Source: Escherichia coli (GTDB taxonomy: Bacteria > Pseudomonadota > Gammaproteobacteria > Enterobacterales > Enterobacteriaceae). From it: 64,000 bases of DNA. The notes under the pieces were generated by a model. That model was not told the DNA's origin. It ran no database searches and was given only the letters and a program-made list of their open reading frames with translations. Below, piece by piece: positions 10,022 through 64,000 of this stretch. A program made the position numbers and the translations under genes. The DNA lies in assembly GCF_029227855.1 (NCBI RefSeq), contig NZ_CP074356.1, one strand, 5' to 3'. Each line of letters starts with the position of its first letter. Within the stretch, counting starts at the first letter, position 1.

Positions 10022-11458
10022 ATGGCGCAGTCGAAACTCTATCCAGTTGTGATGGCAGGTGGCTCCGGTAGCCGCTTATGGCCGCTTTCCCGCGTACTTT
10101 ACCCCAAGCAGTTTTTATGCCTGAAAGGCGATCTCACCATGCTGCAAACCACCATCTGCCGCCTGAACGGCGTGGAGTGCGAAAGCCCGGTGGTGATTTG
10201 CAATGAGCAGCACCGCTTTATTGTCGCGGAACAGCTGCGTCAACTGAACAAACTCACCGAGAATATTATTCTCGAACCGGCAGGGCGTAACACTGCACCT
10301 GCCATTGCACTGGCGGCGCTGGCGGCAAAACGTCATAGCCCGGAGAGCGACCCGTTAATGCTGGTGCTGGCGGCGGATCATGTGATTGCCGATGAAGACG
10401 CGTTCCGTGCCGCCGTGCGTAATGCCATGCCGTATGCCGAAGCGGGCAAGCTGGTGACCTTTGGCATTGTGCCGGATCTACCAGAAACCGGTTATGGCTA
10501 TATTCGTCGCGGTGAAGTGTCTGCGGGTGAGCAGGATACGGTGGCCTTTGAAGTGGCGCAGTTTGTCGAAAAACCGAATCTGGAAACCGCTCAGGCCTAT
10601 GTGGCAAGCGGCGAATATTACTGGAACAGCGGTATGTTTCTGTTCCGCGCCGGACGCTATCTCGAAGAACTGAAAAAATATCGCCCGGATATTCTCGACG
10701 CCTGTGAAAAAGCGATGAGCGCCGTCGATCCGGATCTCGATTTTATTCGTGTGAATGAAGACGCGTTTCTGGCGTGCCCGGAAGAGTCGGTGGATTACGC
10801 GGTCATGGAACGTACGGCAGATGCTGTTGTGGTGCCGATGGATGCGGGCTGGAGCGATGTTGGTTCCTGGTCCTCTTTATGGGAAATCAGCGCCCACACC
10901 GCCGAGGGCAACGTTTGCCACGGCGATGTGATTAATCATAAAACTGAAAACAGCTATGTGTACGCCGAATCTGGCCTGGTCACCACCGTCGGGGTGAAAG
11001 ATTTGGTGGTAGTGCAGACCAAAGATGCGGTGCTGATTGCCGACCGTAACGCGGTACAGGATGTGAAAAAAGTGGTCGAGCAGATCAAAGCCGACGGTCG
11101 CCATGAGCATCGGGTGCATCGCGAAGTGTATCGTCCGTGGGGCAAATATGACTCTATTGATGCGGGCGACCGCTACCAGGTGAAACGCATCACCGTGAAA
11201 CCGGGCGAAGGCTTGTCAGTACAGATGCACCATCACCGCGCGGAACACTGGGTAGTGGTCGCGGGAACGGCAAAAGTCACTATTGACGGTGATATCAAAC
11301 TGCTTGGTGAAAACGAGTCCATTTATATTCCGCTGGGGGCGACGCACTGCCTGGAAAACCCGGGGAAAATTCCGCTCGATTTAATTGAAGTGCGCTCCGG
11401 CTCTTATCTCGAAGAGGATGATGTGGTGCGCTTCGCGGATCGCTACGGACGGGTGTAG
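10022..11458 (+). CDS. manC: Mannose-1-phosphate guanylyltransferase
   Basis: 478 aa ORF; nucleotidyltransferase N-terminus [14 protein letters not shown] and C-terminal cupin domain. Confidence 0.95.
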
Positions 11459-18437: not shown

Positions 18438-19832
18438 ATGCCATTTAAAAAACTCTCCCGACGCACCTTCCTGACGGCAAGCTCGGCGCTTGCCTTCCTC
18501 CATACCCCTTTCGCCCGTGCACTTCCTGCCCGAGCAAGCGTTAACATTAACGATTACAATCCACACGACTGGATTGCTTCATTTAAACAAGCCTTCAGCG
18601 AAGGGCAAACGGTCGTCGTGCCTGCCGGATTGGTTTGCGACAATATCAACACCGACATCTTCATTCCTGCAGGTAAAACGTTACACATCCTTGGAAGCCT
18701 GCGCGGCAACGGCAGAGGGCGATTTGTCTTACAGGACGGCAGCCAGGTGACAGGGGAGGAGGGCGGCAGTATGCATAACATCACCCTGGATGTGCGTGGT
18801 TCTGACTGCACCATCAAAGGGCTGGCGATGAGCGGCTTTGGTCCGGTAACGCAGATTTATATCGGCGGCAAAAACAAACGGGTCATGCGCAACCTGACCA
18901 TCGATAACCTGACCGTTAGCCACGCTAATTACGCCATCTTACGCCAGGGATTTCATAACCAGATTATCGGTGCCAACATCACCAACTGTAAGTTCAGCGA
19001 CTTACAGGGCGACGCCATTGAATGGAACGTGGCGATTAACGACCGTGATATTTTGATATCCGACCACATCATCGAGCGCATCAACTGTACCAACGGCAAA
19101 ATCAACTGGGGCATCGGCATAGGCCTTGCGGGGAGTACTTATGATAATAACTACCCGGAAGACCAGGCAGTGAAAAACTTTGTCGTGGCGAATATCACGG
19201 GATCGGATTGTCGACAGTTGATCCATGTTGAAAATGGTAAACATTTTGTTATTCGTAATATCAAAGCCCGCAATATCACGCCGGATTTCAGTAAGAAAGC
19301 AGGTATTGATAACGCCACAGTTGCTATTTATGGTTGTGACAACTTTGTGATTGATAATATTGAAATGATTAATAGTGCCGGGATGTTAATCGGCTATGGG
19401 GTAATTAAAGGCAAATATCTCTCGATACCGCAGAATTTCCGGGTGAATAATATTCAACTGGATAATACTCATCTTGCTTATAAATTGCGCGGCATTCAAA
19501 TCTCCGCCGGGAATGCTGTCTCCTTTGTGGCGCTGACTAACATTGAGATGAAGCGTGCCTCGCTTGAGCTACACAATAAACCGCAACACCTTTTTATGCG
19601 TAATATCAAGGTGATGCAGGAATCCGCAGTTGGACCCGCATTGAGCATGAACTTCGACATGCGCAAAGACGTTCGCGGCGTGTTTATGGCGAAAAAAGAA
19701 ACACTGCTATCTCTTGCAAATGTTCATGCGGTGAATGAAAAAGGACAAAGCTCGGTCGATATCGACAGGATTAATCACCATATTGTTAATGTGGAAAAGA
19801 TTAACTTTAGATTGCCGGAACGGAGAGAGTAG
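18438..19832 (+). CDS. wcaM: Colanic acid biosynthesis protein WcaM (twin-arginine-type signal, predicted beta-helix)
   Basis: 464 aa ORF; N-terminus [15 protein letters not shown] resembles a Tat signal; last gene of the cluster. Confidence 0.9.
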
Positions 19833-49015: not shown

Positions 49016-49489
49016 ATGAACTACGAGATTAAGCAGGAAGATAAACGTACCGTTGCAGGTTTCCATCTCGTTGGCCCGTGGGAACAGACGGTAAAGAAAG
49101 GTTTTGAGCAGTTGATGATGTGGGTAGATAGCAAAAATATTGTGCCGAAGGAGTGGGTTGCTGTCTATTACGACAATCCGGATGAAACACCCGCCGAAAA
49201 ATTACGCTGCGACACCGTCGTGACGGTACCGAATAACTTTACGCTCCCCGAAAACAGTGAGGGCGTCATTCTGACAGAAATTTCAGGTGGTCAATATGCG
49301 GTGGCGGTGGCTCGTGTAGTCGGTGATGATTTTGCTAAACCCTGGTATCAGTTCTTTAATAGCCTCTTGCAGGACAGTGCTTATGAAATGTTACCAAAGC
49401 CCTGCTTCGAGGTTTACTTGAACAATGGCGCGGAAGATGGGTACTGGGACATCGAAATGTATGTTGCGGTGCAGCCAAAACATCACTAA
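49016..49489 (+). CDS. sbmC: DNA gyrase inhibitor SbmC (GyrI)
   Basis: 157 aa; [24 protein letters not shown]; SOS box upstream. Confidence 0.95.
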
Positions 49490-49686: not shown

Positions 49687-50745
49687 GTGCGTGCCGATAA
49701 GTCATTAAGCCCGTTTGAAATCCGGGTATACCGCCATTACCGCATTGTGCATGGTACTCGGGTCGCGCTGGCATTCCTGCTCACTTTTCTCATTATCCGC
49801 CTGTTTACTATCCCGGAAAGCACCTGGCCGCTGGTCACCATGGTGGTGATTATGGGGCCAATCTCGTTCTGGGGGAACGTTGTCCCTCGTGCCTTCGAAC
49901 GTATTGGCGGTACGGTGTTGGGGTCGATTTTAGGTCTTATCGCTCTACAACTGGAGTTAATCTCGTTACCGCTGATGTTAGTCTGGTGCGCGGCGGCCAT
50001 GTTCCTTTGCGGTTGGCTGGCGCTGGGTAAGAAACCGTATCAAGGTTTATTGATTGGGGTGACGCTGGCAATTGTTGTTGGTTCCCCGACAGGTGAAATT
50101 GATACGGCGTTATGGCGAAGCGGCGATGTGATCCTCGGCTCTTTACTGGCAATGTTGTTTACCGGTATCTGGCCACAACGGGCGTTCATCCACTGGCGCA
50201 TTCAACTGGCAAAAAGTCTGACCGAGTATAATCGGGTCTATCAATCTGCATTCTCACCGAACTTACTCGAACGCCCGCGTCTGGAAAGCCATCTACAAAA
50301 ACTCCTGACCGATGCCGTGAAAATGCGTGGGCTGATTGCGCCCGCCAGCAAAGAAACTCGTATTCCAAAATCGATATATGAAGGTATCCAGACCATTAAC
50401 CGCAATCTGGTTTGTATGCTGGAGTTGCAAATCAATGCATACTGGGCCACGCGCCCCAGCCATTTCGTGTTATTGAACGCGCAAAAACTTCGTGATACCC
50501 AGCACATGATGCAGCAAATACTGCTGAGCCTTGTTCATGCGCTGTACGAAGGTAATCCGCAGCCGGTTTTTTCCAATACGGAAAAATTGAACGATGCTGT
50601 GGAAGAGCTGCGTCTGTTGCTTAATAACCACCATGACCTGAAGGTTGTGGAAACACCAATCTATGGTTATGTGTGGCTGAACATGGAAACGGCGCATCAG
50701 CTTGAGTTGCTATCGAATCTGATTTGCCGGGCCTTGCGCAAATAA
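49687..50745 (+). CDS. yeeA: Inner membrane protein YeeA (FUSC-like)
   Basis: 352 aa; GTG start; hydrophobic N-half. Confidence 0.88.
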   Translation: MRADKSLSPFEIRVYRHYRIVHGTRVALAFLLTFLIIRLFTIPESTWPLVTMVVIMGPISFWGNVVPRAFERIGGTVLGSILGLIALQLELISLPLMLVWCAAAMFLCGWLALGKKPYQGLLIGVTLAIVVGSPTGEIDTALWRSGDVILGSLLAMLFTGIWPQRAFIHWRIQLAKSLTEYNRVYQSAFSPNLLERPRLESHLQKLLTDAVKMRGLIAPASKETRIPKSIYEGIQTINRNLVCMLELQINAYWATRPSHFVLLNAQKLRDTQHMMQQILLSLVHALYEGNPQPVFSNTEKLNDAVEELRLLLNNHHDLKVVETPIYGYVWLNMETAHQLELLSNLICRALRK

Positions 50746-50916
50746 TTCCTGAACTTCAGAATCATCTTGCTGCTGCTTCGATTCAGCAAGGATAAAGGGT
50801 ATGATAGTGAAAAGGGATAAAAGCATTGTCATCTGCGGCAGCTATGAGTAATGTTGGCCCTATCGAATAGCGGTTGCTTAAACGAATCCGACTCTCACAT
50901 TATCAGGGGTATAAAA

Positions 50917-51246
50917 ATGGAAACTACCAAGCCTTCATTCCAGGACGTACTGGAATTTGTTCGTCTGTTCCGTCGTAAGAACAAACTGCAACGTGAAATT
51001 CAGGACGTTGAGAAAAAGATCCGTGACAATCAGAAGCGCGTCCTGCTGCTGGACAACCTGAGTGATTACATCAAGCCGGGGATGAGCGTTGAAGCAATCC
51101 AGGGCATCATCGCCAGCATGAAAGGTGACTATGAAGATCGTGTTGACGATTACATCATCAAAAATGCCGAGCTCTCCAAAGAACGCCGCGATATCTCCAA
51201 AAAGCTGAAAGCTATGGGCGAAATGAAAAACGGCGAAGCGAAGTAA
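50917..51246 (+). CDS. yeeX: UPF0265/DUF496 protein YeeX
   Basis: 109 aa from [41 protein letters not shown]; the ORF track start at 50851 is an extension. Confidence 0.92.
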
Positions 51247-51258
51247 TTCCTGTTTTAT

Positions 51259-51300
51259 TCAATGAGGGTTGCCCGGCAACCCTCATTGCTCATTGTTTCT
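51259..51300. terminator. Terminator hairpin between convergent yeeX and pduV
   Basis: aatgagggttgcc-cggcaaccctcatt perfect inverted repeat followed by a T-rich stretch on the plus strand. Confidence 0.65.
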
Positions 51301-51346
51301 TTTCTGTGTATCACCGTCATCATTCCCATCTGATAACCTATTGAAA

Positions 51347-51790
51347 TTAGCGACAGCCTTCTTCTGTATGCAGCAAGGCAAAAAGTTCTGCAACTCCATT
51401 GTTATTAACCGCACTGGTTACTAACACATTGTGCGCTCCAGCTTCCCGTAACCAACTTTTCACCAAAGATATTTGTTCCATGCTGGCTAAATCTGCTTTG
51501 GTGACTACTCCAATGACCGGGCGATTCATTGACGAGGTAAAGCCTGGCGAAAAAGGGGACCACGGTGCGTCCGCATTAAGCACCAGGGCGATAATGTCCG
51601 CTTCGCAGGCGCTGACCAACAGAGCACTGTAGAGGCTGCGGTTTTCGAGGTATTCGCCTGGTGTATCAATGGTGGTCGGGGACCAGACGATTGCCTGCGT
51701 TTTCTGATAATGAATATTTTCGCCACGCAGACATTGCGTGAGTGACGTTTTTCCGCACTGGCTGGGGCCGATGAGCATCATACGTTGCAT
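51347..51790 (-). CDS. pduV: PduV, EutP/PduV-family small GTPase associated with the Pdu microcompartment
   Basis: 147 aa; P-loop [10 protein letters not shown]; matches recalled Salmonella PduV. Confidence 0.88.
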
Positions 51791-51794
51791 AACG

Positions 51795-52145
51795 TCAGGT
51801 CCGCGTAATGGGGCAGGCGGTAAAGCGCATCATTTCACCCAGCGTACGGGTAACCTGGCTAAGTGCATATTCAATGGCAGAAACATCACCAGTCAGCACT
51901 ACGGCACCGGTAAAACGATCAAGAAAACCGATCTCTACAGCGCCTGATTTTGTGGCGATATCACATGCGATGATAGATGCTTCGCTGGGGGTAATTGTCA
52001 GAATGCCAATAGCAGAAACGGTGTCTGGTAAACCCAATTTCTTAAACAGATCCTTCCCTGGATTGGCGATGACATGTGCCAGCGTGACCTGCTTACCAGG
52101 GACATATTCCTGAATCATCCGTTCAGTTGTGTGCTGAGTTGTCAT
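51795..52145 (-). CDS. pduU: PduU, BMC shell protein (circularly permuted BMC domain)
   Basis: 116 aa from [32 protein letters not shown]; near-identical to recalled Salmonella PduU. Confidence 0.9.
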
Positions 52146-52699
52146 TATCCCTCCACCATCTGACGCCACATGGCTTCATGTGGACGGGCAATCACCGACC
52201 GATAGACCAACAAACCTTTTTCTCCCGCACGCTCGCTGGCGACAGAGACCGCGTTATTAACATCTGAAATATCGCCAGCAACCACCATGTAGCATTTACC
52301 GCCAATGCCAAAAGCCATATGCACGCGAACAAGAATGACATTCGCAGCTTTGACAGCACAATCGGCAGCGTCAATGCAGGCGGCGACACTCCAGGTTTCG
52401 ACTACGCCGACAGCCCGGTGCTGTTCAACTTGGTTCAGTCCGCTGGTTGCAGAAAGGAGGCTGGGATGAATATTCGGCAGGACAAGACTGTCGACCAGCA
52501 TTTCACCAGCAAGGGAAGCACCGCTGTTGATGGCCTGTTGCACCGCGCCCACATCGCCACCGAGCATCAGCAGAAATTTTCCGGGGCATAGCGTTTTGCT
52601 GACCAGTAACTCAACGTTGGCGCTTTTCAGCATGGCGTCGCCGGTTTCCATCCCTTTCGCGATACTGCTAAGTTCTAAAATACCTACCGCTTTCGACAT
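52145..52699 (-). CDS. pduT: PduT, tandem-BMC-domain shell protein
   Basis: 184 aa with two BMC domains; [29 protein letters not shown]. Confidence 0.9.
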
Positions 52700-52701
52700 C
52701 G

Positions 52702-54045
52702 TTAACCTCTCACAAGCGTAATCGCGTTTTCTGTCACATCGCTGACCATGCCATCAATACTGGCATGAATGGGGGCACCTAATGTGCCGTGTGGAATTTG
52801 ACCTACACATTGCCCATGAACGACGCGATCGCCTTTTTGTACACACGCAATTGCGCTGGCACCGATGTGCTGGCGTAACAATAACGTCACTTTTTCGGTC
52901 TGAGGCACCTGTTCAGACAATGGCGCATCCTGATACCACGGGGTTAAGCCAAGTCTGGTTACCAGCCGTTTTACGGGAATCAGTCGATAATTTGCCATGG
53001 GATCTGCAGGATTTAAGGTACCTTCGTAACGGAGATTTTGTGCGCGTAATTCTTGCTTAAGCAGGCGGTTTATGCGCATTGGTGAAATTCCTACCGGACA
53101 GGCGACGCTGGCGCAGACGTTGCACTCCGAACAGGTGAGCGCCGTCAGTAACAGTTGTGGCGTAGCGAGCTGTTGGTAGTTAACCGCACGTACTAATAAA
53201 TGGGGTGCCAGTTCGTGACCGATTAAATGACGTGGGCAGAGATCGGTACACAAGCGGCATTGCTCACAAACAGTTTTCGCGACGGCAAGTACGCTGCGGT
53301 CATTCTGCATTCGACGTTGGATCAGTGAATGAGAGTTGGGTAAAACCAGCAAGCCGCCAGTGGTTTTGCTGACTGGTGTGTCGAGCGATGTGATCAAACT
53401 TCCCATCATCGGCCCGCCATTGATAAAACCAGGAGCATCCACTGTTGCGCCGCCCGCCAGCGCCAGGACTTCACGTAAAGACATGCCGATGGGGACGGTT
53501 ACCGTTATTGGTTTCGCCACTGCACCATTAACGGTGAGTGTGCGGCGCGTCACTGGATACTGTTGCTCGACGGCTCTGGCAATATTAAGTACGGTTTGAA
53601 CATTATTGACCACCACACCGACGTTAACGGGTAATGCAGCGGGTGGAACACGGCGACCAGTTGCCATCCAGATGGTCAGCACTTCGTCTCCTGCGGGGTA
53701 AACGTCGGGCAAAATATGCAGGCGGATATCCGGTGGTAACAGTGGTGTGAGTGCGTTTATTGCCCGTTGATATTTCTCTTTCAGCGCGATGATTCCGCTA
53801 CTGGCCCCGGTGGCTTTCATCGCATAGTGAACACCGCGAAGCAGGCGGCTGGCTTGCTGCGCCATTAACTGTTGATCCACTTTCAACATTGGTTCGCATT
53901 CCGCCGCATTCACCAGGAACGTGTCAACACGCGCTTGTAGCTTAATATGGGTTGGGAAACCTGCGCCGCCAGCACCCACGACACCAGCTGCCTGTACTCG
54001 CTCGCGGATGGTCTGGTCGTCGCAGGAGGTTAACTCGACGTTCAT
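52702..54045 (-). CDS. pduS: PduS, cobalamin reductase (RnfC/NuoF-like flavoprotein with two 4Fe-4S motifs)
   Basis: 447 aa; GAGGAGFP nucleotide-binding motif; Cys clusters [12 protein letters not shown] and [13 protein letters not shown]. Confidence 0.9.
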
Positions 54046-55154
54046 AACAACTCCTCGAGCAGTTCTGCAATAGCGGTGGCATCAGCCGTACGCGGGTTGG
54101 TACGCAACGTTGCATCCGCCAGTGCCGCCTGAACCATATCTGGTATGCGTATTGACCATTCTGCTTTTTTTTCTTTCAGCACATTGGTAAGAGTCGGTAG
54201 CTTACAGGTTGTTTTAAGCTGTTCAATATGTTGAATAAGTATATTCAGGCTGGCGGTGTCATTGGCGTTGTCCGGGCATAAATGGCACGTTTTCGCCAGC
54301 CGGGCGTAGCGTTTGGCAGCGCGCGGATCGCCAGCATTAAAGCGGATAACCGCCGTGAGCAGGAGCGCATTCGCCAGGCCGTGTGGCAGATGAAACTGTC
54401 CGCCGAGTTGATGAGCAATTGCATGGTTTAATCCCAGTCCAGCTTGGCTAAAGGCCATTCCTGCAAGTGTCGATGCATTATGCATTTTGCCACGGGTGGC
54501 GAGACAATCGCCTTTCTTCACTGCAGTGGGCAGGTATTGAAAAACAATTTGCACGGCTTTTTCGACCAGTGCATCCGTGAAGTCGCTGGCGCGGGGAGAA
54601 ACATAAGCTTCAAGCGCATGGGTTAAAACATCCATCCCGGTATTGGCCGTTATCGCCGGTGGCACGCTGACGATCAGAGATGGATCAAGGATCGCGATAT
54701 CCGGATAAAGTGCATTATCGAAAAGGGGATATTTAATCCCTTTCTCAGGATCGCTGATGACACAAGCACTGGTCACTTCGGAACCGGTACCGCTGGTGGT
54801 AGGAATGGCTACGCAGGTTTCAATTTCAATGCCACACTGGCGACCGAACCAGACAATCGCTTTTGCGGCGTCCAGGGCAGAACCGCCGCCAAAACCGATA
54901 ACCACATCCGGGCGTAAAGTCTGCATTTGCGCAATGCCTTTCACCACGGTCTGGATAGTTGGGTCGGGCGTTATTTCGCTAAAAATACTAAGACGATTAC
55001 TGTCGGGCAGCGCCTGATGCAACGTGTTAATGAGTGGTGAGCGTGCCAGAAAGACGTCGCAAATAATCCAGATGTGTTTATGAGAGAAACGGCTAAGTAC
55101 CTTGAGACTTCCCGGTCCGCTGTATAAACGCGTCTGCAGTGAAAAAGTATTCAT
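54042..55154 (-). CDS. pduQ: PduQ, iron-containing 1-propanol dehydrogenase
   Basis: 370 aa; Fe-ADH family glycine-rich region GFGGGSALDAAKA. Confidence 0.9.
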   Translation of the reverse strand: MNTFSLQTRLYSGPGSLKVLSRFSHKHIWIICDVFLARSPLINTLHQALPDSNRLSIFSEITPDPTIQTVVKGIAQMQTLRPDVVIGFGGGSALDAAKAIVWFGRQCGIEIETCVAIPTTSGTGSEVTSACVISDPEKGIKYPLFDNALYPDIAILDPSLIVSVPPAITANTGMDVLTHALEAYVSPRASDFTDALVEKAVQIVFQYLPTAVKKGDCLATRGKMHNASTLAGMAFSQAGLGLNHAIAHQLGGQFHLPHGLANALLLTAVIRFNAGDPRAAKRYARLAKTCHLCPDNANDTASLNILIQHIEQLKTTCKLPTLTNVLKEKKAEWSIRIPDMVQAALADATLRTNPRTADATAIAELLEELL

Positions 55155-55164
55155 TTCCGTTTCT

Positions 55165-56550
55165 CTAGCGAATTGAAAAGCCGCTGGTTAACACGCAGCG
55201 TCGTGAGCGGGCAAAAGTCCGTGCTGACGTTGTCCCTTCTCCGGTCGGTGTTGCAATGGTAAAGGTCGTAAAGCCTTCGCCGCCGACGCCAATACCCGCC
55301 CAGGAGGGGCCGTTTTTGACAAAGATTGAGGTTTGCATAACGCGTGCGGTAAGGTTGAGCCGTGAGACGTTCTGCGAGTGCATAATTGCCGTGTGGTGCA
55401 AGCCGTCTTCCACTTTCAGCGCCAGGGTGAGAGCGCTATCAAAATCGTTGACCTTCACAATGGGCAGCATTGGCATCAGTTGTTCACAAGTAACCCAACT
55501 ATCATTGGCGTCGACAACAGCAATCAGTAGGCGCGGCGCTTTTGCGGGCAAAGGGAGGCCTGCCGCTTCCAGCAAGGCTGATGGGCTTTTCCCAACCAGT
55601 TTTTTGTTGGCGCTACCGTCTGGCAGGCAAATTGCACGCAATTTCTCCGTTTGCTCATAGTTAAGAAGAAGCGCGCCAAAACTTTGCATCTGCTGAATTA
55701 AATAATCTGCCACTGATGCCACGACAATCAGGCTTTTTTCAGCAATACACGGCAGGTTGTAATCAAATGAAGCGCCGTTGATGATGTCCTCGGCGGCTTT
55801 CACAATATCCGCCGTTTCATCGACGATGCACGGAGGGTTACCCGCTCCGGCACCAATCACTTTCTTGCCACTTTTCATTCCCATGGCGACGATCCCCGGA
55901 CCGCCGGTAATCGCCAGAACGCTGATTTTAGGGTGCGCCATCATCTGTTCGGTTGCAGCAAAGGTCGGTTCAGATACGGTAACGATCAGGTTATGAATGC
56001 CACTACAACGAAACGCGATGTCTTCGATTGTGGTAATCAGTTTTAACGAAACGTATTTGGCTCCCGGGTGTGGACTGAAGTAGACGCTATTACCTGCTGC
56101 CAGCATGCTGATGCTGTTGTTAATGATGGTTTCCGTGGGGTTGGTGCTTGGCGTGACCGAGCCAATAACCCCAAACGGGGAGTATTCAAACAAAACCATG
56201 CCACCATCACCGGTTAGTGCAGTGGTGGTTAAATCTTCAATTCCTGGCGTGTTATCAAGTGCCGCTTTGTTTTTTAGGTACTTATCTTCTTTATTTCCCA
56301 TCCCCGTTTCTTTGGCGCTTTCTTCTGCCAGTTCGGTCAGGCGGGGTATTAATTCTTCGCGAATGGCGCTGATAATGGCGCTACGGGTTTTAAGCGGGCA
56401 CTGTTGAAAGCGTAAAAAGGCCTGGTGTGCTGCGCAGACCGCTTCATCAACAGTCTGGAAAATAGCGTTTCTTTGCATTCGTTGCGTAGCGGGGGCAAGC
56501 TGCTCACGCAGAATATTGCGGATCAGTGTTTCTAATTCAGAGTTATTCAT
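55165..56550 (-). CDS. pduP: PduP, CoA-acylating propionaldehyde dehydrogenase
   Basis: 461 aa aldehyde dehydrogenase with N-terminal amphipathic extension MNNSELETLIRNILREQL. Confidence 0.92.
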   Translation of the reverse strand: MNNSELETLIRNILREQLAPATQRMQRNAIFQTVDEAVCAAHQAFLRFQQCPLKTRSAIISAIREELIPRLTELAEESAKETGMGNKEDKYLKNKAALDNTPGIEDLTTTALTGDGGMVLFEYSPFGVIGSVTPSTNPTETIINNSISMLAAGNSVYFSPHPGAKYVSLKLITTIEDIAFRCSGIHNLIVTVSEPTFAATEQMMAHPKISVLAITGGPGIVAMGMKSGKKVIGAGAGNPPCIVDETADIVKAAEDIINGASFDYNLPCIAEKSLIVVASVADYLIQQMQSFGALLLNYEQTEKLRAICLPDGSANKKLVGKSPSALLEAAGLPLPAKAPRLLIAVVDANDSWVTCEQLMPMLPIVKVNDFDSALTLALKVEDGLHHTAIMHSQNVSRLNLTARVMQTSIFVKNGPSWAGIGVGGEGFTTFTIATPTGEGTTSARTFARSRRCVLTSGFSIR

Positions 56551-57554
56551 TGGTTTACTCCCACGTTAATTGCCGCCATTGCGCTTTGGGCAATATCCAT
56601 GTCTTGTTCAACGCTACCACCGCTGATGCCAAGCCCCCCGAGCAATATTCCGTCACGCCAGAGGGGGAAGCCGCCACCAAAGGTGACGACTTTGCCTTGC
56701 ATATGGCTTTCGAGCCCGTAAAGCGGCGCGCCGGGTTGCACGGTATCAGCAAGTTTGTGGGTTGCCGTTTTCATCGCCACGGCAGTCCAGGCTTTTTTCG
56801 GTGCCAGTTCACTGCTGACCAACAGGGCATCAGGCATCCGCCAGGTAACACTTTCTGTTCCGTTGGCATCAACAATGCTGATGACAACGGGAATATGCAG
56901 TTCATCCGCGCGCATTGCCGCACTACGAATGAGCTGGTGAAGATCCTGAAAAGTGAGCGGCATTGTGCGTTCCTTCAATGCTGGTGTGTGGTTGGCTTTG
57001 TGATAACGTTTTGTGATTTCCTGAATTATCAGGTTTTGATGAGCGACGTTGTCTTCCACGCGGGCGAGGGCATACAGGCAATCGGAAAGTCGGTTGATAT
57101 AGTGCAGCAAAACATTCCGGACGGTGATTTCCGTTGTCAGTTCAACCAGACGTCTTTCAGCACGTCGAGCCACCGTGCGGGCGAAATGCATACGGCTTGC
57201 AGCTTCACATCGCCCAGGCAGAATGAAGCTGTGAACTGGGGGGACGGCGTTCATTGCGCTATCGATCGCGTTTTCCAGCGCGGCAATTTCTTCCGTACCG
57301 ATGTAACGCAGCTGCGCTGACGGCTGTTCGCTTTCACTGGCAAGTTCGGCGCTAAACCAAAATATCTGTTGTTGAATGGCTTCCAGTAAGATGCGATGGC
57401 TTTCGATGGCGGTGGCGCAATAACACAGACTGAGTGTCGCGTTCAGTTCATCCAGCGTGCCATAGGTTTCGACACGTAGATGAGTTTTGCTGACGCGCTG
57501 TCCGGTAAATAAAGACGTACTTCCTGAATCACCTGTTCGGGTATAAATTGCCAT
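56547..57554 (-). CDS. pduO: PduO, ATP:cob(I)alamin adenosyltransferase with C-terminal DUF336 domain
   Basis: 335 aa; MAIYTRTGDSGSTSLFTGQRVSK N-terminus typical of PduO-type ATR. Confidence 0.92.
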   Translation of the reverse strand: MAIYTRTGDSGSTSLFTGQRVSKTHLRVETYGTLDELNATLSLCYCATAIESHRILLEAIQQQIFWFSAELASESEQPSAQLRYIGTEEIAALENAIDSAMNAVPPVHSFILPGRCEAASRMHFARTVARRAERRLVELTTEITVRNVLLHYINRLSDCLYALARVEDNVAHQNLIIQEITKRYHKANHTPALKERTMPLTFQDLHQLIRSAAMRADELHIPVVISIVDANGTESVTWRMPDALLVSSELAPKKAWTAVAMKTATHKLADTVQPGAPLYGLESHMQGKVVTFGGGFPLWRDGILLGGLGISGGSVEQDMDIAQSAMAAINVGVNQ

Positions 57555-57565
57555 CTTTCAGCTCC

Positions 57566-57841
57566 TTAGCGCGAAAGCGTATCGACAATGCCGACCACTG
57601 CCAGGTCGATGGCCTCGTTAGGGCCGGAAAACACATGTCTGGCGCTGGAACCACTGCTGAGGAGTACCAACTCACCAACGCCTGCGCCGACTGAATCAAC
57701 GGCAACTTCGTCGCCGGTTAATGGCGTGAGAGGCAGTTCGCCGTCAGCACTGACCCGGCGAACCAGCAGCAGTTTTTTCCCGATCAGAGATGGTGATTTT
57801 TGCGTGGATACTACCGCGCCAGTGACTCGAGCCAGATGCAT
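57566..57841 (-). CDS. pduN: PduN, BMC vertex (pentamer) protein of the EutN/CcmL family
   Basis: 91 aa; [17 protein letters not shown]. Confidence 0.9.
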
Positions 57842-57844
57842 AGG

Positions 57845-58336
57845 TTACTCCTGCCTAATTAACTGAATATTTCGGGTAATTGCCGCTTCACGAGCCAGTG
57901 CGGTCACACAACATTTCCGCTGTAACACCAGTATTCCCGAGCTTAACTGTGCGATATCGGCATAACTTAAAAGTCGATCACGATGAAGGTAGATCGGTTG
58001 CCCTTGTTCGTCGCACCAGCTTAGCGGTAGACGGGCGAGAGTCTTCAATTCAATGGCGTTCAGGAAATGACGCTGCAACGACAATTGAATGTGCATTCCC
58101 CAGGCTAACGCTTCGTGTATCTGGATTGCTGCTCGATCTGACGTTTCGTTCTCCGCAAGTTGTCGCAGCAGCGGCAGATCGACATATCGGATTTGTAATG
58201 ACGCATACTGATGAACGCTCTCTTGAACGCTGGCGTCTCGCAGTTGAAAAACAGTCAGCACGAGTGCTTTTCTCGCACGTTGTTTAAGGCGAAAAACCAC
58301 CTCGTCAACAATACGTTGCATCAGCATGTTATTCAT
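57845..58336 (-). CDS. pduM: PduM, microcompartment structural protein
   Basis: 163 aa; position between pduL and pduN; length matches recalled Salmonella PduM. Confidence 0.8.
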   Translation of the reverse strand: MNNMLMQRIVDEVVFRLKQRARKALVLTVFQLRDASVQESVHQYASLQIRYVDLPLLRQLAENETSDRAAIQIHEALAWGMHIQLSLQRHFLNAIELKTLARLPLSWCDEQGQPIYLHRDRLLSYADIAQLSSGILVLQRKCCVTALAREAAITRNIQLIRQE

Positions 58337-58965
58337 GGCACTGACACCAGTGTGGCAAAAACGTCAGGGCTATCAGCGCCTGCGGCGTTGGCCTCATCGG
58401 TATCAATATGCATTTCAAGACGCATATCCGGAGAGACGCGAACAGCGACGTTTTCGAATATCAGTCGTCGCTCACCACCTTCAATGGCAACCGCCACTTT
58501 ATCGCCATGCGTAACGCCATAAATCAGGGCATCCAGCGGAGACATATGAATATGCCGTTGCGCGACAATGACGCCAGATGTGATCTCCAGTTCCGCAAAT
58601 GGGCTTATCAAACGAATCCCCGGAGTGCCGCTGAGATCGCCTGACATGCGTAGCGGGGCGGTGATCCCTAACGTTCTGGCGTCCGTCCGGGAAATTTCCA
58701 CCTGGCTTGCATTGCGTAGCGGCCCCAACAAGCGAACGTTGTGCAATTTGCCTTTTGGTCCCTCCAGCGTAACAACCTGTTCAGCAGCGAATTGGCCAGG
58801 TTGCATTAACGGCTTTTTCTCGCTAATCGGTTGTTCAGGAAAAAGACGCAAATAATCCGCTGTTGAAAGATGAATATGGCGACTGGAAACGCCCAGTGGG
58901 ATAGGGCGCTCGCGCATCTCATCCAGAATCTGGCTCACTGTTTCCTGCAGGGTTTGTTTATCCAC
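58333..58965 (-). CDS. pduL: PduL, phosphate propanoyltransferase
   Basis: 210 aa; N-terminal MDKQTLQETVSQILDEM amphipathic peptide followed by PduL/EutD-type domain. Confidence 0.9.
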   Translation of the reverse strand: MDKQTLQETVSQILDEMRERPIPLGVSSRHIHLSTADYLRLFPEQPISEKKPLMQPGQFAAEQVVTLEGPKGKLHNVRLLGPLRNASQVEISRTDARTLGITAPLRMSGDLSGTPGIRLISPFAELEITSGVIVAQRHIHMSPLDALIYGVTHGDKVAVAIEGGERRLIFENVAVRVSPDMRLEMHIDTDEANAAGADSPDVFATLVSVP

Positions 58966-58967
58966 TG

Positions 58968-59390
58968 CTACTCCCCTCGCTTATTGGCGTACAGGCAAAG
59001 TGAGCGGGGCTCACCTTTTTGCCGCTGACATGCCGGGTCAAGACACAAATTACAACTGATAATCTCTGAGGTGACGGTTGTTGCTGGTGTTTTGCTTGTT
59101 TCAACCGTCACGGTCAATGCTTCAATTGTGTGGGGCAGAATGCCGTCTCCCGGGCGGGCAATCACTTTGTGTGCGACAAGGCCATTTCGCTGTCCGGCGA
59201 AACTGGCTCCCGTCGCGATCGCCGCATTAACCGAGGCGACGTCACCGGTGATTTTGATGAGCGTCCAGCCTGAGCCATTGGTCTTCTCAAGGCCAACCAG
59301 CGTGATGGACGCGGCTTTTGCCATAGCGTCTGCGCAACTGATGGCGAGAGCCAGACCACTGACTTCAAGTAATCCCAGTGATTGCTTCAC
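58968..59390 (-). CDS. pduK: PduK, BMC shell protein with Cys-rich C-terminal extension
   Basis: 140 aa; N-terminal BMC domain MKQSLGLLEVSGLALAISCADAMAKAA; C-terminal CNLCLDPAC...C. Confidence 0.88.
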   Translation of the reverse strand: MKQSLGLLEVSGLALAISCADAMAKAASITLVGLEKTNGSGWTLIKITGDVASVNAAIATGASFAGQRNGLVAHKVIARPGDGILPHTIEALTVTVETSKTPATTVTSEIISCNLCLDPACQRQKGEPRSLCLYANKRGE

Positions 59391-59413
59391 GCTGTGCTCC
59401 TTAGCGAATGGGG

Positions 59414-59689
59414 TTATGCTGATTTAGGTAAAATAGCCTCAACATCACTGTGTGGGCGCGGGATGACATGGCAGGATTTCACTTCGCCAACGGCGCTTGC
59501 GGCGGCGCTTCCTGCATCAACGGCGGCTTTTACTGCGCCAACATCGCCACGGACCATCACCGTAATCAGACCCGAACCAATCTTTTCATAGCCAACCAGC
59601 TGCACGTTGGCGGATTTAACCATGGCATCTGCAGCTTCAATTGCGCCAACTAACCCTTTTGTTTCAACCAGTCCTAGTGCGTTGTTCAT
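59414..59689 (-). CDS. pduJ: PduJ, major BMC hexamer shell protein
   Basis: 91 aa; [40 protein letters not shown]. Confidence 0.9.
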
Positions 59690-59708
59690 ACTGCATTTCT
59701 CCTGTGGA

Positions 59709-60059
59709 TTATGAGTGGAGTTCCCGGAAGGGAATCCCTTTTACCAGGCGGGCAGCGTTAGAGCCAATGCTGCGCCGGGCATGGTTATCTTGTTGATACA
59801 TCAGCGTAAACAGTGGCGCTGATGCCGGTAAGTTTTTGTAATGCACAATCAGTTTTTCCTGATCGCAGGCAATGCCAACCAACAGGGGAGATTGACTAGC
59901 AGCCAGCCAGGCGCTATCGATAACTTCACCTGACGGAATGTGTTGAATGCGAAAGGGAATACCTTCCTCTTCAATGCCAAGAAGCACCTCATCCCATATA
60001 GTGATGCAGTTACCGATCTCCATGACGACGATGGCTGGTGCACGCTCTTTACTTTCCAT
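59709..60059 (-). CDS. pduH: PduH, diol dehydratase reactivase small subunit
   Basis: 116 aa; start overlaps the pduG stop; position after pduG. Confidence 0.85.
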
Positions 60060-61881
60060 GAATCGACTCCTTGTGCCAGGCGATGAGTAGCCCAGTAGCT
60101 ACCGCGTTGCGCGGACCTTCGCTACCACGGATATTCCCCCGTCCGGCGACCAATCGATAATGCGCCAATGCATCGGTGACTAACTGCGGTACTTCGAAAT
60201 CCAGCGAAGAACCGCCCACCAGAACGACGAACGGAATATCGCGAATATTTCCGGCAGGGCTTACCTGACGTAGCGCGCGCAGGGCATTGGTTACGAAGAC
60301 ACGCTCTTTCGCACTGCGGCGGACAGCGCGTACTTTTTCCAGCGTCAAATCACCGGGAATGGGCACCAGTTCGTCGGGTTTCACTACACAGACGCGGGCA
60401 AATACATGGGGGGATAGGGGAGTAGGGAAGAACTGAACGCTGCCATCTTCATGGCGTAAGTGGAACAGGCTTTCTACTTTTGCCAACGGGTACTTTTTGA
60501 TTTCTTCTGCCAGATAACGATCATTTAAGCCCAGCTCACGAGCGATAATCATCGTTACCATGTCGCCCGCTCCCGCAAGGTGAGTGGCAACAATTTCTCC
60601 TTTCTGATTGATGATGGAGGCATCGGTAGAGCCTGCACCTAAGTCCAGAATTGCCAGTGGACGTGTGGTTCCAGGGGTAGTCAAGGCCCCCTGAATGGCG
60701 GCTTCTGCTTCTGCGCCTCCGACCTGAACATCAACATGCAGTTTTTGCTTAATTTCACTGGCGATCATTGCCATTTGCAGACGGTCGGATTTCACCATAG
60801 AGGCAATACCCACAGCCTGTTCCAGTGAAAATTCACCTGCCAGACCGCCGGTTACGCTGACGGGGACAGAGGTATCTATCGCCAGCAAATCCTGAATAAA
60901 AATTTCGTTGCTGGGTTTGTTGGTCAGTTCCGCCATGGTCTGGCGAACATGTTCCAGCATTCCGCCGATGTTGGTGCCTGGTTCTCCCGTCACGTTTTCC
61001 AGTTTTGGGCACTCACCGACCGCTTTCATAATGGCATCGGCACCAGCAGCTACATCAACGCGCGTTGTGCGCCCGGCAGAAAGCAGTTCGATATTTCCGG
61101 CGGGTATCGAACGGGCTTTAACGTCGCCAGAAGGCGTTTTCACTACCACTGCTGAACGGTTGCCGATTAGCGCCCGCGCGACAGGAACAATATTTTTAGT
61201 CTCTTCAGCATTGAGGGCGAAAACGGTGGCAATCCCATACGGGTTAGACAGGGTTTCGATAACTTTCCCGGGAACGGCAACTTCAATTGCAGCCAGCATG
61301 CCGAGCGGAATACGATCGATGTAGAGGACTTCATCAACAATAGGTACAGCAATTTCCAGGCGGTTACTGACCAGCACGCCATCGTCGCGTTGCAGAATAA
61401 CGCCAGTCAGCTGATATCCGGCACGTACGGAGGCGTTTATCATCGTCGCGATATCGGCAAAATCAAATGCCGATGACACCACCAGGATGTAAGGTGTGTC
61501 CGCCGGGCGTGTTAATAACTCTTGCGGAGTGATGGTGAGCCCTACGCCCAGCCCCACTCCGCCCGGAGTTTTCGGGTTGTGACCGATCATGGTTGATTCG
61601 GTGATGATGGTTTCAGTGATGGTTTCCATCGCCACATCACCAATGACCGGAGTTGCTTCGTTGATACGAATAAGCGAAATATCGCTAACATTGATGCCGA
61701 CTTTTTTCGTTGCCTGTGCGAGCGCCTCCTGAATACCATGGACGTTACGCAACGTACCTTTAATTCCGGTGGTTTCCGCCAGGGCGCTACTCACGAACGA
61801 CAACTCTCCAGTTGCACTGAGCGTTGCCAGCGCAACCTCTGTTGATGAGTTGCCGATATCAATGCCTGCTATATATCGCAT
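60049..61881 (-). CDS. pduG: PduG, diol dehydratase reactivase large subunit
   Basis: 610 aa; MRYIAGIDIGNSSTEVALA N-terminus (ASKHA ATPase fold). Confidence 0.92.
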   Translation of the reverse strand: MRYIAGIDIGNSSTEVALATLSATGELSFVSSALAETTGIKGTLRNVHGIQEALAQATKKVGINVSDISLIRINEATPVIGDVAMETITETIITESTMIGHNPKTPGGVGLGVGLTITPQELLTRPADTPYILVVSSAFDFADIATMINASVRAGYQLTGVILQRDDGVLVSNRLEIAVPIVDEVLYIDRIPLGMLAAIEVAVPGKVIETLSNPYGIATVFALNAEETKNIVPVARALIGNRSAVVVKTPSGDVKARSIPAGNIELLSAGRTTRVDVAAGADAIMKAVGECPKLENVTGEPGTNIGGMLEHVRQTMAELTNKPSNEIFIQDLLAIDTSVPVSVTGGLAGEFSLEQAVGIASMVKSDRLQMAMIASEIKQKLHVDVQVGGAEAEAAIQGALTTPGTTRPLAILDLGAGSTDASIINQKGEIVATHLAGAGDMVTMIIARELGLNDRYLAEEIKKYPLAKVESLFHLRHEDGSVQFFPTPLSPHVFARVCVVKPDELVPIPGDLTLEKVRAVRRSAKERVFVTNALRALRQVSPAGNIRDIPFVVLVGGSSLDFEVPQLVTDALAHYRLVAGRGNIRGSEGPRNAVATGLLIAWHKESIHGK

Positions 61882-61890
61882 AGTTCGTCC

Positions 61891-62409
61891 TTAATCGTCG
61901 CCTTTCAGTTTTTTGCGCTCGACATAAAGTTCCGCAGCTTCACGGACAAATGCAGCACAAATTTTGGCCTGATAACGCCGTTCAAGATCGTCAGCAATGG
62001 CAATAAGTTCTTGCTTAGTCGAACGATAAGGGCGTAACGCATTGTAGATTTCGAGGATGCGATCATCCGGTACTGAGGTAAGCTCAGCGGCGCGTTCAAA
62101 ATTCATCGCCAGGCGATCGCGACCAGCATCTCTGGCAATCGCGGCCTGAATACGCAATGTTTCAGGGGTTATACGCATATCCTGGGCGGTGACGTTATCG
62201 CTGAGTACATTTTCCAGAGTGAAATCGTCGAGCGTTTTATTGGTCGCCGTTTTAACCCATTCCGGATGTTTATTTGCCAGCGGATAATCCGTCACTTTGG
62301 CGCTCTGTATTGACGCGTTGGGTGCCGCAGAAACAGGAGCTGCATCCTGTAAACTGTTCATGCGATTCAACACGTCCCTGACCATCGACTCAATTGCATC
62401 GGTATTCAT
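61891..62409 (-). CDS. pduE: PduE, B12-dependent diol dehydratase small (gamma) subunit
   Basis: 172 aa; matches recalled PduE. Confidence 0.9.
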   Translation of the reverse strand: MNTDAIESMVRDVLNRMNSLQDAAPVSAAPNASIQSAKVTDYPLANKHPEWVKTATNKTLDDFTLENVLSDNVTAQDMRITPETLRIQAAIARDAGRDRLAMNFERAAELTSVPDDRILEIYNALRPYRSTKQELIAIADDLERRYQAKICAAFVREAAELYVERKKLKGDD

Positions 62410-62423
62410 GAAGGTTTCCTTTG

Positions 62424-63092
62424 TTAAAACGTCACGCGCAGTTCTTGCGGTTTTTTGCCAGTGACCACGTACTTCGTCTCTTTAATATGCAAAATGGCAG
62501 ATTTGGCCTGGTATTTCGGCCGCGCCATTTGATCGTTGAGGGTCGGCACCGGTTGTGGAGACTCACGCTTTGCATAACGCGCGGCGTTTTTGCCAATCTG
62601 ACGATAAGTTTCCAGCGTCAACAAAGGCGCTTGTGGGAATAGTTCCAGGTTAGACAAGGGAGGAAGACCTTGCTGGTGGATAACCGTTGTGCCTTTCGAC
62701 TGAATACCGATAGCAATACCTGAACCACTAAGACGATCGCCTTCGACTGCTACGAATGCGACATCGGACGATTTAAAGCAGCGAATCACACGGGCTTTAA
62801 TGCCTTCTTCTTCGATACCAGCAATCACTTCGCGCAAGATGTTTTTATGCGGAATACCGATGATATTGACGGTTTGCGCCAGGCCGAACGCCGGGCCTAC
62901 AGCAATAATGACTTCATCTTGCTGAGTGCCTTGTTGGGCTTCGCCAATTTCGGCCAGAAAAGTTCCGGTATCTGGCGCGGAAGAGACAGTTGCACAGGCA
63001 GGTGCGCGAAATGAAACGGGCTTGTCGCTGGTTTGCATTTCTGCCAGCACGTCTTCGATAATCTGACGCAGTAATTTTTCGTTAATTTCCAT
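62424..63092 (-). CDS. pduD: PduD, B12-dependent diol dehydratase medium (beta) subunit
   Basis: 222 aa; N-terminal [19 protein letters not shown] amphipathic peptide. Confidence 0.92.
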
Positions 63093-63101
63093 TTCTCACC
63101 C

Positions 63102-64000
63102 TTAGTCAATTTCGTTGGGATCAAGTGCACCGGGAATATTTTTGATCTCTTCCCAGCGTTCCCCTTGCAGGCGGTAACCTGTAGCCGGTCCGGCGTAATC
63201 ATTGACGTCATTGACCGCAGAGAGCACTTGTCCGTCATCGACGATGATGGCTGAGGTATGGAGATAATCGCCGGTCAGTTTTGCTTTTTGCATGTTGAGC
63301 ATGTCTTGGGCGACATCGGTAAAACCGCCTTGCGCCAGGGCTTTCACCACTTCCAGGCTGTTCCGGTTTTTATTGATAATCTCCTGGGCGAACTTGATGT
63401 CTTCCACAATATTGCGCTCAGGCATATCTTTTGAACCGTGGGCATAGGTTGCCGCTTCGACTTCTTCATCGGTAATAGGCGGTAGTCCCATACCGGCAAA
63501 GACAGCCTGTAAAGCGCGAGCGGCTTTATTGCGGATAGCGATAACATCTTCTTCGCGTACTGGTCGCAGGCCGCCATCAACCTTCAGGTCACGCTGAATG
63601 ACGTTGTAATCATCGAAGTCTTCAGCATCTTCGTTTGAACCAGCAAACATGTTGTCGTAGTTCGGCACAGCGGAAAAACCGGAAGAGATAAAGTCGGTAC
63701 CTGGCAGAAACTGCATCAGGAAACGTGCGGTACGGCGCATATCCGAGTGGGTAAAGGTCTGGTCATTACTGGAGGCGCATTCCAGATCCAGCGATGAGCA
63801 AATTAAGTTTTCCGCTAATACTGCGCGGATGCCTGATGGCACAGCCGATGGAACACCGATGCAGCTTACCGAACCATTCTGTAGACCCTGAACTCCTGCG
63901 GCTTTGGTGATGTAAATGCAACGAGCCTCGAGATAAAGCATTGATTTGCCTTCCGCGTAACCCATCTGTACTTCAGAGCCGGAGCCGGAAGTAAAGCGCA
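63102..64000 (-). CDS. pduC: PduC, B12-dependent diol dehydratase large (alpha) subunit, C-terminal part (5' end outside window)
   Basis: Frame open to the window edge; roughly 299 C-terminal codons including ...GPATGYRLQGERWEEIKNIPGALDPNEID-stop. Confidence 0.9.
   Translation of the reverse strand, partial: RFTSGSGSEVQMGYAEGKSMLYLEARCIYITKAAGVQGLQNGSVSCIGVPSAVPSGIRAVLAENLICSSLDLECASSNDQTFTHSDMRRTARFLMQFLPGTDFISSGFSAVPNYDNMFAGSNEDAEDFDDYNVIQRDLKVDGGLRPVREEDVIAIRNKAARALQAVFAGMGLPPITDEEVEAATYAHGSKDMPERNIVEDIKFAQEIINKNRNSLEVVKALAQGGFTDVAQDMLNMQKAKLTGDYLHTSAIIVDDGQVLSAVNDVNDYAGPATGYRLQGERWEEIKNIPGALDPNEID

Follow-up and report, generated by a model that had tools for sequence, protein, structure and literature searches.

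The DNA analysed here, a stretch of 64 kb referred to below as the window, comes from an E. coli chromosome. Strain JNEC-KY178 matches it at 100.0% identity over positions 39001-64000 (25 kb) and strain EFF60 at 100% over positions 50700-52200 (1.5 kb), and hundreds of other E. coli strains match at 96-99% identity. At the locus of interest tmaR (yeeX) converges on the last gene of a pdu operon, pduV, with a short spacer between the two stop codons (Table 1). The stop codon of tmaR is a TAA at 51244-51246 and that of pduV lies on the minus strand at 51347-51349. TmaR is 100% identical to TmaR of K-12 and scores 188.5 bits on the NCBIfam model NF040881 (cut-off 170) and 197.6 bits on NF003844, which places it in the TmaR/YeeX (DUF496) family. 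PduV matches TIGR02528 at 187.4 bits (cut-off 138.35) over residues 2-141 and so belongs to EutP/PduV; it is 88-94% identical to PduV of other Escherichia, 72-80% to that of named Citrobacter and Pseudocitrobacter and 67% to that of a soil MAG (locus L027). On the other side of tmaR, yeeA provides an anchor of synteny common with Citrobacter, where it occupies the same position with 75-79% amino-acid identity. A scan of positions 50700-51900 for sigma-70-like promoters found none, and a search of positions 50600-51900 against Rfam at E <= 1 matched no family.

The pdu operon reaches pduB and pduA beyond the edge of the window, as seen from the EFF60 annotation, and the RefSeq annotation of the identical region includes the shell genes pduA/B/J/K/N/T/U as well as the B12-dependent diol dehydratase pduCDE; the products of these genes are 67-100% identical to their Citrobacter orthologues. 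The core enzymes PduP (55165-56550), PduQ (54042-55154) and PduL (58333-58965) are intact and 80-85% identical to those of Citrobacter braakii.

Table 1. Features around the tmaR-pduV junction (window positions unless another locus is named)
Feature	Position	Strand	Description and basis
sbmC	49016-49489	+	Gene near the junction, 5' of yeeA
yeeA	49687-50745	+	FUSC-family membrane protein; core gene, 5' of tmaR; EFF60 annotation of the identical region
tmaR (yeeX)	50917-51246	+	DUF496 PTS regulator, 109 aa; convergent with pduV
Spacer between the convergent stops of tmaR and pduV	51247-51346	.	Exactly 100 bp; homologous genus-wide in Escherichia
Intrinsic-terminator-like hairpin of tmaR (predicted)	51260-51305	+	Stem-loop 51260-51288, T-rich tail after it; terminator scan
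Presumed deletion scar	51289-51358	-	Last three pduV codons (GCR), stop codon and ~58 nt of spacer
pduV	51347-51790	-	EutP/PduV GTPase-like microcompartment protein, 147 aa; last gene of the operon
Part of pduV surviving as a remnant (K-12 'yoeF') in pdu-negative E. coli	51347-51529	-	183 bp; adjoins CP4-44-type island
pduU	51795-52145	-	NCBIfam match and RefSeq annotation of the identical region
pduT	52145-52699	-	NCBIfam match and RefSeq annotation of the identical region
pduS	52702-54045	-	NCBIfam match and RefSeq annotation of the identical region
pduQ, P, O, N, M, L, K, J, H, G, E, D and part of pduC	54042-64000	-	ORF list, EFF60 annotation, identity to Citrobacter orthologues
pduV stub in other strains	K-12 (L002) 18747-18926; L033 and L034 6648-6830		Annotations of K-12, CFT073 and O157:H7

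An earlier note on this DNA had described the spacer as about 100 bp with a terminator hairpin, and both its length and the hairpin were borne out, the latter by a terminator scan and by folding against shuffled sequences. The stem-loop consists of a 13-bp stem with 7 G-C pairs and a 3-nt loop, followed on the plus strand by CTCATTGTTTCTTTTCT, and has a fold energy of -21 to -23 kcal/mol. The fold of the spacer beats all 200 shuffles on both strands (z = -3.3 on the plus strand and -5.25 on the minus strand). Read along the tmaR strand, the G+C-rich stem-loop is succeeded by a U-rich tract, the sequence signature of an intrinsic terminator, whereas along the pduV strand the hairpin is followed 3' by the A-rich tail TTGAATAAAACAGG and this signature is missing for pdu. 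A strong stem is present shortly 3' of the tmaR stop codon in 22 of 23 other loci checked, and a weaker one in the remaining locus (L019), and it is retained across lineages even where the sequence differs between them. Because the stem is kept 3' of tmaR in spite of this sequence change, the hairpin is best read as a predicted terminator of tmaR that is there with or without pduW and pduX beyond it. The proposal that it acts as a bidirectional terminator serving pdu too was rejected as unsupported; with an A-rich stretch following it on the pduV strand it does not have the form of a canonical pdu terminator.

The pdu operon of Salmonella enterica LT2 and Citrobacter freundii (pduABCDEGHJKLMNOPQSTUVWX) has the same gene order from pduA to pduV as the operon in the window and then continues with pduW and pduX. 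The central statement of the earlier note, that the operon here ends at pduV beside yeeX and lacks these two genes, proved exact in its coordinates and agrees with the NCBIfam identities of the genes and with searches made with proteins of C. braakii (locus L013). In that species pduV is followed by a 404-aa protein with a score of 837 bits against the PduW-type kinase model NF009063, and next by a 288-aa GHMP-family kinase in the position of PduX. When these PduW and PduX sequences were compared by tblastn with the whole 64-kb window, the best matches had E = 1.5 and E = 0.14 respectively, and hence neither a pduW 3' of pduV nor a pduX at the end of the operon was found.

The same question was asked of E. 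coli at large by searching 2.2 kb of Citrobacter pduW-pduX DNA by blastn, with 11-base words, against 5,426 complete E. coli genomes including their plasmids, a DNA-level search that speaks for absence down to an identity of roughly 65-70%. None of the 5,426 genomes had a Citrobacter-like pduW at the pdu locus and none had pduX-like DNA anywhere. JNEC-KY178, identical to the window over 25 kb, was part of this collection and gave no match to either gene, which at this level of identity also speaks against pduW and pduX lying elsewhere in the genome. Six genomes matched over 63 nt of tdcD, and the one other match was a pduW-like kinase gene, 75.5% identical in nucleotides to Citrobacter pduW, in strain 48, a deer isolate and the sole case of its kind in the collection. 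This gene sits at another chromosomal site in a second pdu operon, which runs from pduA to pduV plus the kinase, is without pduX and is flanked by remnants of IS66 and IS21 (L031 421-16188, corresponding to NZ_CP166879.1 5244379-5260146). The second operon of strain 48 is foreign and separate from the locus linked to tmaR.

The distribution of the junction in E. coli was determined with a 351-bp probe that reaches from the end of tmaR across the spacer into the end of pduV, counted at a coverage of at least 80%. Of the 5,426 complete genomes, 5,383 (99.2%) have the junction, and 641 of the latter have intact pduV and pduU contiguous with tmaR, as in the window. At least 80% of the 25-kb stretch from 39001 to 64000, which comprises core genes and the in-window part of pdu, is held by 613 genomes, and hundreds of RefSeq genomes annotate exactly the same gene order. 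Architecture and junction in pdu-positive E. coli in RefSeq (AIEC isolates, ST372 and others) are identical to those of the window, which is an ordinary member of this group with nothing of note to set it apart.

Most pdu-negative genomes, as judged from an evenly spaced sample (30 matches listed), align with the window from 50700 to 51529 only, that is, up to a point within pduV. The stub of pduV that remains in such strains is 95-98% identical to the window (95% over 60 aa in K-12). In K-12 the prophage CP4-44 lies between cobU and the pduV remnant beside tmaR, and the stub abuts the annotated end of CP4-44. The same stub is found in CFT073 and in an O157:H7 strain, next to a CP4-44-type island that carries yeeW-cbtA-cbeA-yeeT-yeeS, so that these distant pdu-negative lineages have a common breakpoint inside pduV. 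K-12 thus retains tmaR, the 100-bp spacer with its hairpin and the last 183 bp of pduV, but differs from the window, where the operon is intact, in that CP4-44 replaces the remaining pdu genes, pocR and pduF. The earlier note had placed this replacement at the spacer; the replacement itself is real, but its boundary falls 183 bp inside pduV, at 51529. This also accounts for the K-12 coding sequence 'yoeF', listed in RefSeq as an uncharacterised protein, whose 3' part, the last 60 codons, is the pduV stub.

Beyond E. coli, a scan with PduV over one genome per species returned 28 loci from relatives with at least about 64% identity; Salmonella and Klebsiella are not among them, and their pdu gene order next to tmaR is presumed here, partly on the basis of the literature. 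The stop codons of pduV and tmaR are 100-115 bp apart in each of the Escherichia loci (two divergent E. coli lineages, E. whittamii and E. albertii). The gap measures about 2.2 kb and encodes PduW and PduX in all Citrobacter loci that extend as far as tmaR, as well as in Pseudocitrobacter and a contig labelled Raoultella. In a Pluralibacter MAG pduW and pduX come directly after pduV, in a retrieved locus without a tmaR match, and in the more distant soil enterobacterial MAG (L027) the order is pduW, a cobA-like methyltransferase, pduX and then tmaR. This comparison between Escherichia and the Citrobacter group was one that the earlier note had itself proposed, and its outcome goes against the interest that the note had seen at the level of the strain, since the short form is the common Escherichia arrangement in 99.2% of E. 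coli as well as in E. albertii and E. whittamii. The layout is common to all Escherichia genomes examined and is therefore ordinary, not a trait of the strain from which the window comes. The observation is thereby confirmed and its interpretation partly supported, with the arrangement being the normal one for the genus.

Several of these loci have features of their own. The gene between pduW and pduX in the soil MAG (L027 11643-12386) encodes a uroporphyrinogen-III C-methyltransferase of the cobA / cysG C-terminal type. In Citrobacter amalonaticus AUH_CA_2023_1 pduW (L024 10438-11651) is split into three overlapping pieces in different frames and is either a pseudogene or affected by assembly frameshifts. 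A contig of a 'Citrobacter' MAG (L028 10001-10210) has a pduV that is 100% identical to that of E. coli over 70 aa, and a contig of a 'Planctomycetota' MAG (L029 5064-5511) has a tmaR 100% identical to that of E. coli over 25 aa; both contigs are probably mis-binned or contaminating E. coli.

Pairwise alignment of E. coli with C. braakii shows where the two arrangements part. Similarity stops after codon 144 of pduV and resumes at the hairpin. In Citrobacter the start codon of pduW overlaps the end of pduV at this same codon-144 breakpoint, and the hairpin lies directly 3' of the stop codon of pduX. For the intervening segment, 51289-51358, an nhmmer profile built from seven Escherichia junctions gave no significant match to pduV, pduW or pduX in eleven pduV-to-tmaR stretches of the Citrobacter group. 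The part from the hairpin to tmaR alone matched (E = 0.003), and a few colinear matches in the last ~230 bp of pduX, at E values of 0.6-15, are unusable. In E. albertii pduV has a TAA four codons before the stop of E. coli (L006, about 10430-10445), and the spacers of E. albertii and E. whittamii are 8 bp longer. This earlier stop in E. albertii suggests that the C-terminal tail of Escherichia PduV is unconstrained.

The explanation that we favour, with a probability of about 0.88, is that the junction is the usual distal end of the pdu operon in Escherichia, that the locus has been vertically inherited and that pduW and pduX were lost once in an early ancestor of Escherichia. The Escherichia operon would then be a 19-gene version, from pduA to pduV, placed between cobUST and tmaR-yeeA-sbmC-dacD as in Citrobacter. 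A single deletion of ~2.1-2.2 kb in the ancestor of the genus, before E. albertii and E. coli diverged, would have taken out precisely pduW (propionate kinase) and pduX (L-threonine kinase), starting near the pduW start codon, at its overlap with pduV, and ending close to the 3' end of pduX. It would have given PduV its new three-residue tail and produced the 100-bp spacer, in which the pre-existing tmaR hairpin would be the only recognisable element. The spacers of the window, K-12, E. coli E69 and SCPM, E. whittamii, E. albertii and Escherichia sp. MOD1 align over their full length, which points to a single event in their common ancestor. Most E. coli would later have lost the remainder of pdu, a CP4-44-type island taking its place and leaving the pduV stub. 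Vertical descent is supported by the fact that the pdu genes and the flanking core genes are equally diverged and have the same neighbours: nucleotide identity to C. braakii lies mostly at 73-83% across the pdu genes and at 72-80% across yeeA, sbmC and dacD, identity to E. albertii lies mostly at 86-94% and 86-88% respectively, and the neighbours on the tmaR side are those found in Citrobacter. The view of the earlier note that the strain keeps an ancestral pdu locus in shortened form therefore stands as far as ancestry is concerned, but the shortening belongs to the genus and not to the strain. Gene content, junction, distribution and synteny were observed directly in the genomes; that the change was a loss in Escherichia and not a gain elsewhere would follow from parsimony. 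Counting against it, the spacer contains no recognisable residue of pduW or pduX.

This last point could be turned around, such that the short Escherichia form is ancestral and the lineage of Citrobacter and Salmonella gained pduW and pduX by insertion between pduV and tmaR. A spacer free of any recognisable remnant would be expected in that case, and PDU1B-type loci without PduW exist elsewhere (PMC4207490). We nevertheless consider it unlikely, given that pduW and pduX occupy this exact site in Citrobacter, Pseudocitrobacter and the distant soil enterobacterial MAG, and also come after pduV in the Pluralibacter MAG and in Salmonella (PMC7181861). The tight layout of the Citrobacter operon, with pduW overlapping the end of pduV and the pduX stop abutting the tmaR hairpin, argues in the same direction, as does the fact that similarity to Escherichia PduV ends exactly at the pduW start, in a tail that appears unconstrained. 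Acquisition of the whole operon by horizontal transfer from a donor without pduW and pduX, through homologous replacement at the old site, draws some plausibility from the repeated gain and loss of pdu within E. coli lineages such as ST372 (PMC9997745) and from strain 48, which shows that foreign pdu operons can be acquired. It is made highly improbable by the equal divergence of pdu and flanking core genes, both from Citrobacter and from E. albertii, by the unchanged neighbours on the tmaR side and by the pduV stub of pdu-negative strains, whose 95-98% identity implies that the E. coli-type operon is older than their loss of pdu; transfers of pdu within the species would leave the conclusion unchanged. 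A recent truncation specific to the strain or its lineage, with other pdu-positive E. coli keeping pduW and pduX, has the contrast with the Salmonella operon as its sole basis, and no support for it was found. It is refuted by a junction that is near-universal in complete E. coli genomes and common to E. albertii and E. whittamii, by the joining of pduV to tmaR in all 641 genomes with intact pduV-pduU, and by the lack of pduX-like DNA in the complete E. coli genomes searched.

The loss of the two genes looks tolerable from what is known of their functions. In Salmonella PduW converts propionyl-phosphate to propionate with a gain of ATP, PduX is the kinase of L-threonine for the aminopropanol arm of B12, and both enzymes are cytosolic and lie outside the microcompartment (PMC7181861). 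PduX acts together with CobD and CbiB, whereas the assembly of the nucleotide loop in E. coli involves CobU, S, T and C only (PMC6249242). The gene tdcD is present in 5,377 of the 5,426 complete E. coli genomes, and its product, a propionate kinase, is 44% identical to PduW. E. coli also has ackA, and TdcD and AckA could convert propionyl-phosphate to propionate in place of PduW. PduX would feed only the CobD/CbiB steps of corrin-ring completion, which are absent from Escherichia because the cbi operon has been lost and cobinamide or B12 is only salvaged via CobUST; with the cbi genes gone the threonine kinase would have nothing to feed. In pdu-positive E. coli a cobalamin riboswitch lies 3' of pocR and is followed by a 145-aa N-terminal fragment of CbiG and then by cobU-cobS-cobT. 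The Salmonella cbi block comprises 17 genes, and the CbiG fragment is what remains of it in these strains. The ORF matches the N-terminal third of CbiG only and is located beyond the right end of the window (EFF60 L001 37709-41049).

It seems very unlikely that the loss of pduW and pduX amounted to a rewiring of the pathway and was not neutral tidying after the loss of B12 synthesis. Were this so, the housekeeping enzymes AckA and TdcD would have to handle all the propionyl-phosphate that PduL makes, with possible effects on acyl-phosphate pools and on propionylation or signalling in pdu-positive E. coli of the gut such as AIEC. A separate idea, of equally low probability, is that the ~58-nt segment of the spacer functions as a 3'-UTR element, in which case this segment, without a counterpart in Citrobacter, may serve pdu or tmaR.

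In comparison with the operons of Salmonella LT2 and C. freundii, the Escherichia locus has in common with them the shell proteins, the diol dehydratase and its reactivase, PduL/P/Q, PduO/S and PduV, together with the divergent pocR-pduF and the neighbouring cob genes, and it has in common with Citrobacter the downstream neighbourhood tmaR-yeeA-sbmC-dacD. It differs from them in lacking the distal cytosolic genes pduW and pduX, in having the cbi part of the cob operon reduced to a fragment and in the different three-residue tail of PduV. In the absence of a PduW propionate kinase it resembles the PDU1B-type loci as described by Axen et al. (2014; PMC4207490), whose classification of microcompartment loci includes a PDU subtype without PduW. 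That E. coli is without PduW is already published. Chittori et al. did not find a counterpart of Salmonella PduW in E. coli (PMC3475010), and in a pdu-positive Crohn's isolate TdcD was the only PduW homologue and PduL was present (PMC7360682). The arrangement is in this sense already known; no paper describing the tmaR-pduV junction itself was found, and there is nothing unexpected about the junction. The finding matters little beyond recording which version of the operon, from pduA to pduV, is carried across the genus Escherichia. It does mean that models of propanediol metabolism in pdu-positive E. coli (AIEC, canine ST372) should not take a dedicated propionate kinase or a threonine kinase for granted, and it would date the loss of pduW and pduX to before the split of E. 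coli and E. albertii, and so earlier than the replacement of pdu by a CP4-44-type island.

One further protein of the operon stands out in the comparisons made here. With 54% identity to its counterpart in C. braakii and 40% to that in the soil MAG, PduM (57845-58336) is far more diverged than its neighbours, the adjoining Pdu proteins being 68-100% identical, and between E. coli and E. albertii it has the lowest conservation of all Pdu proteins (84%).
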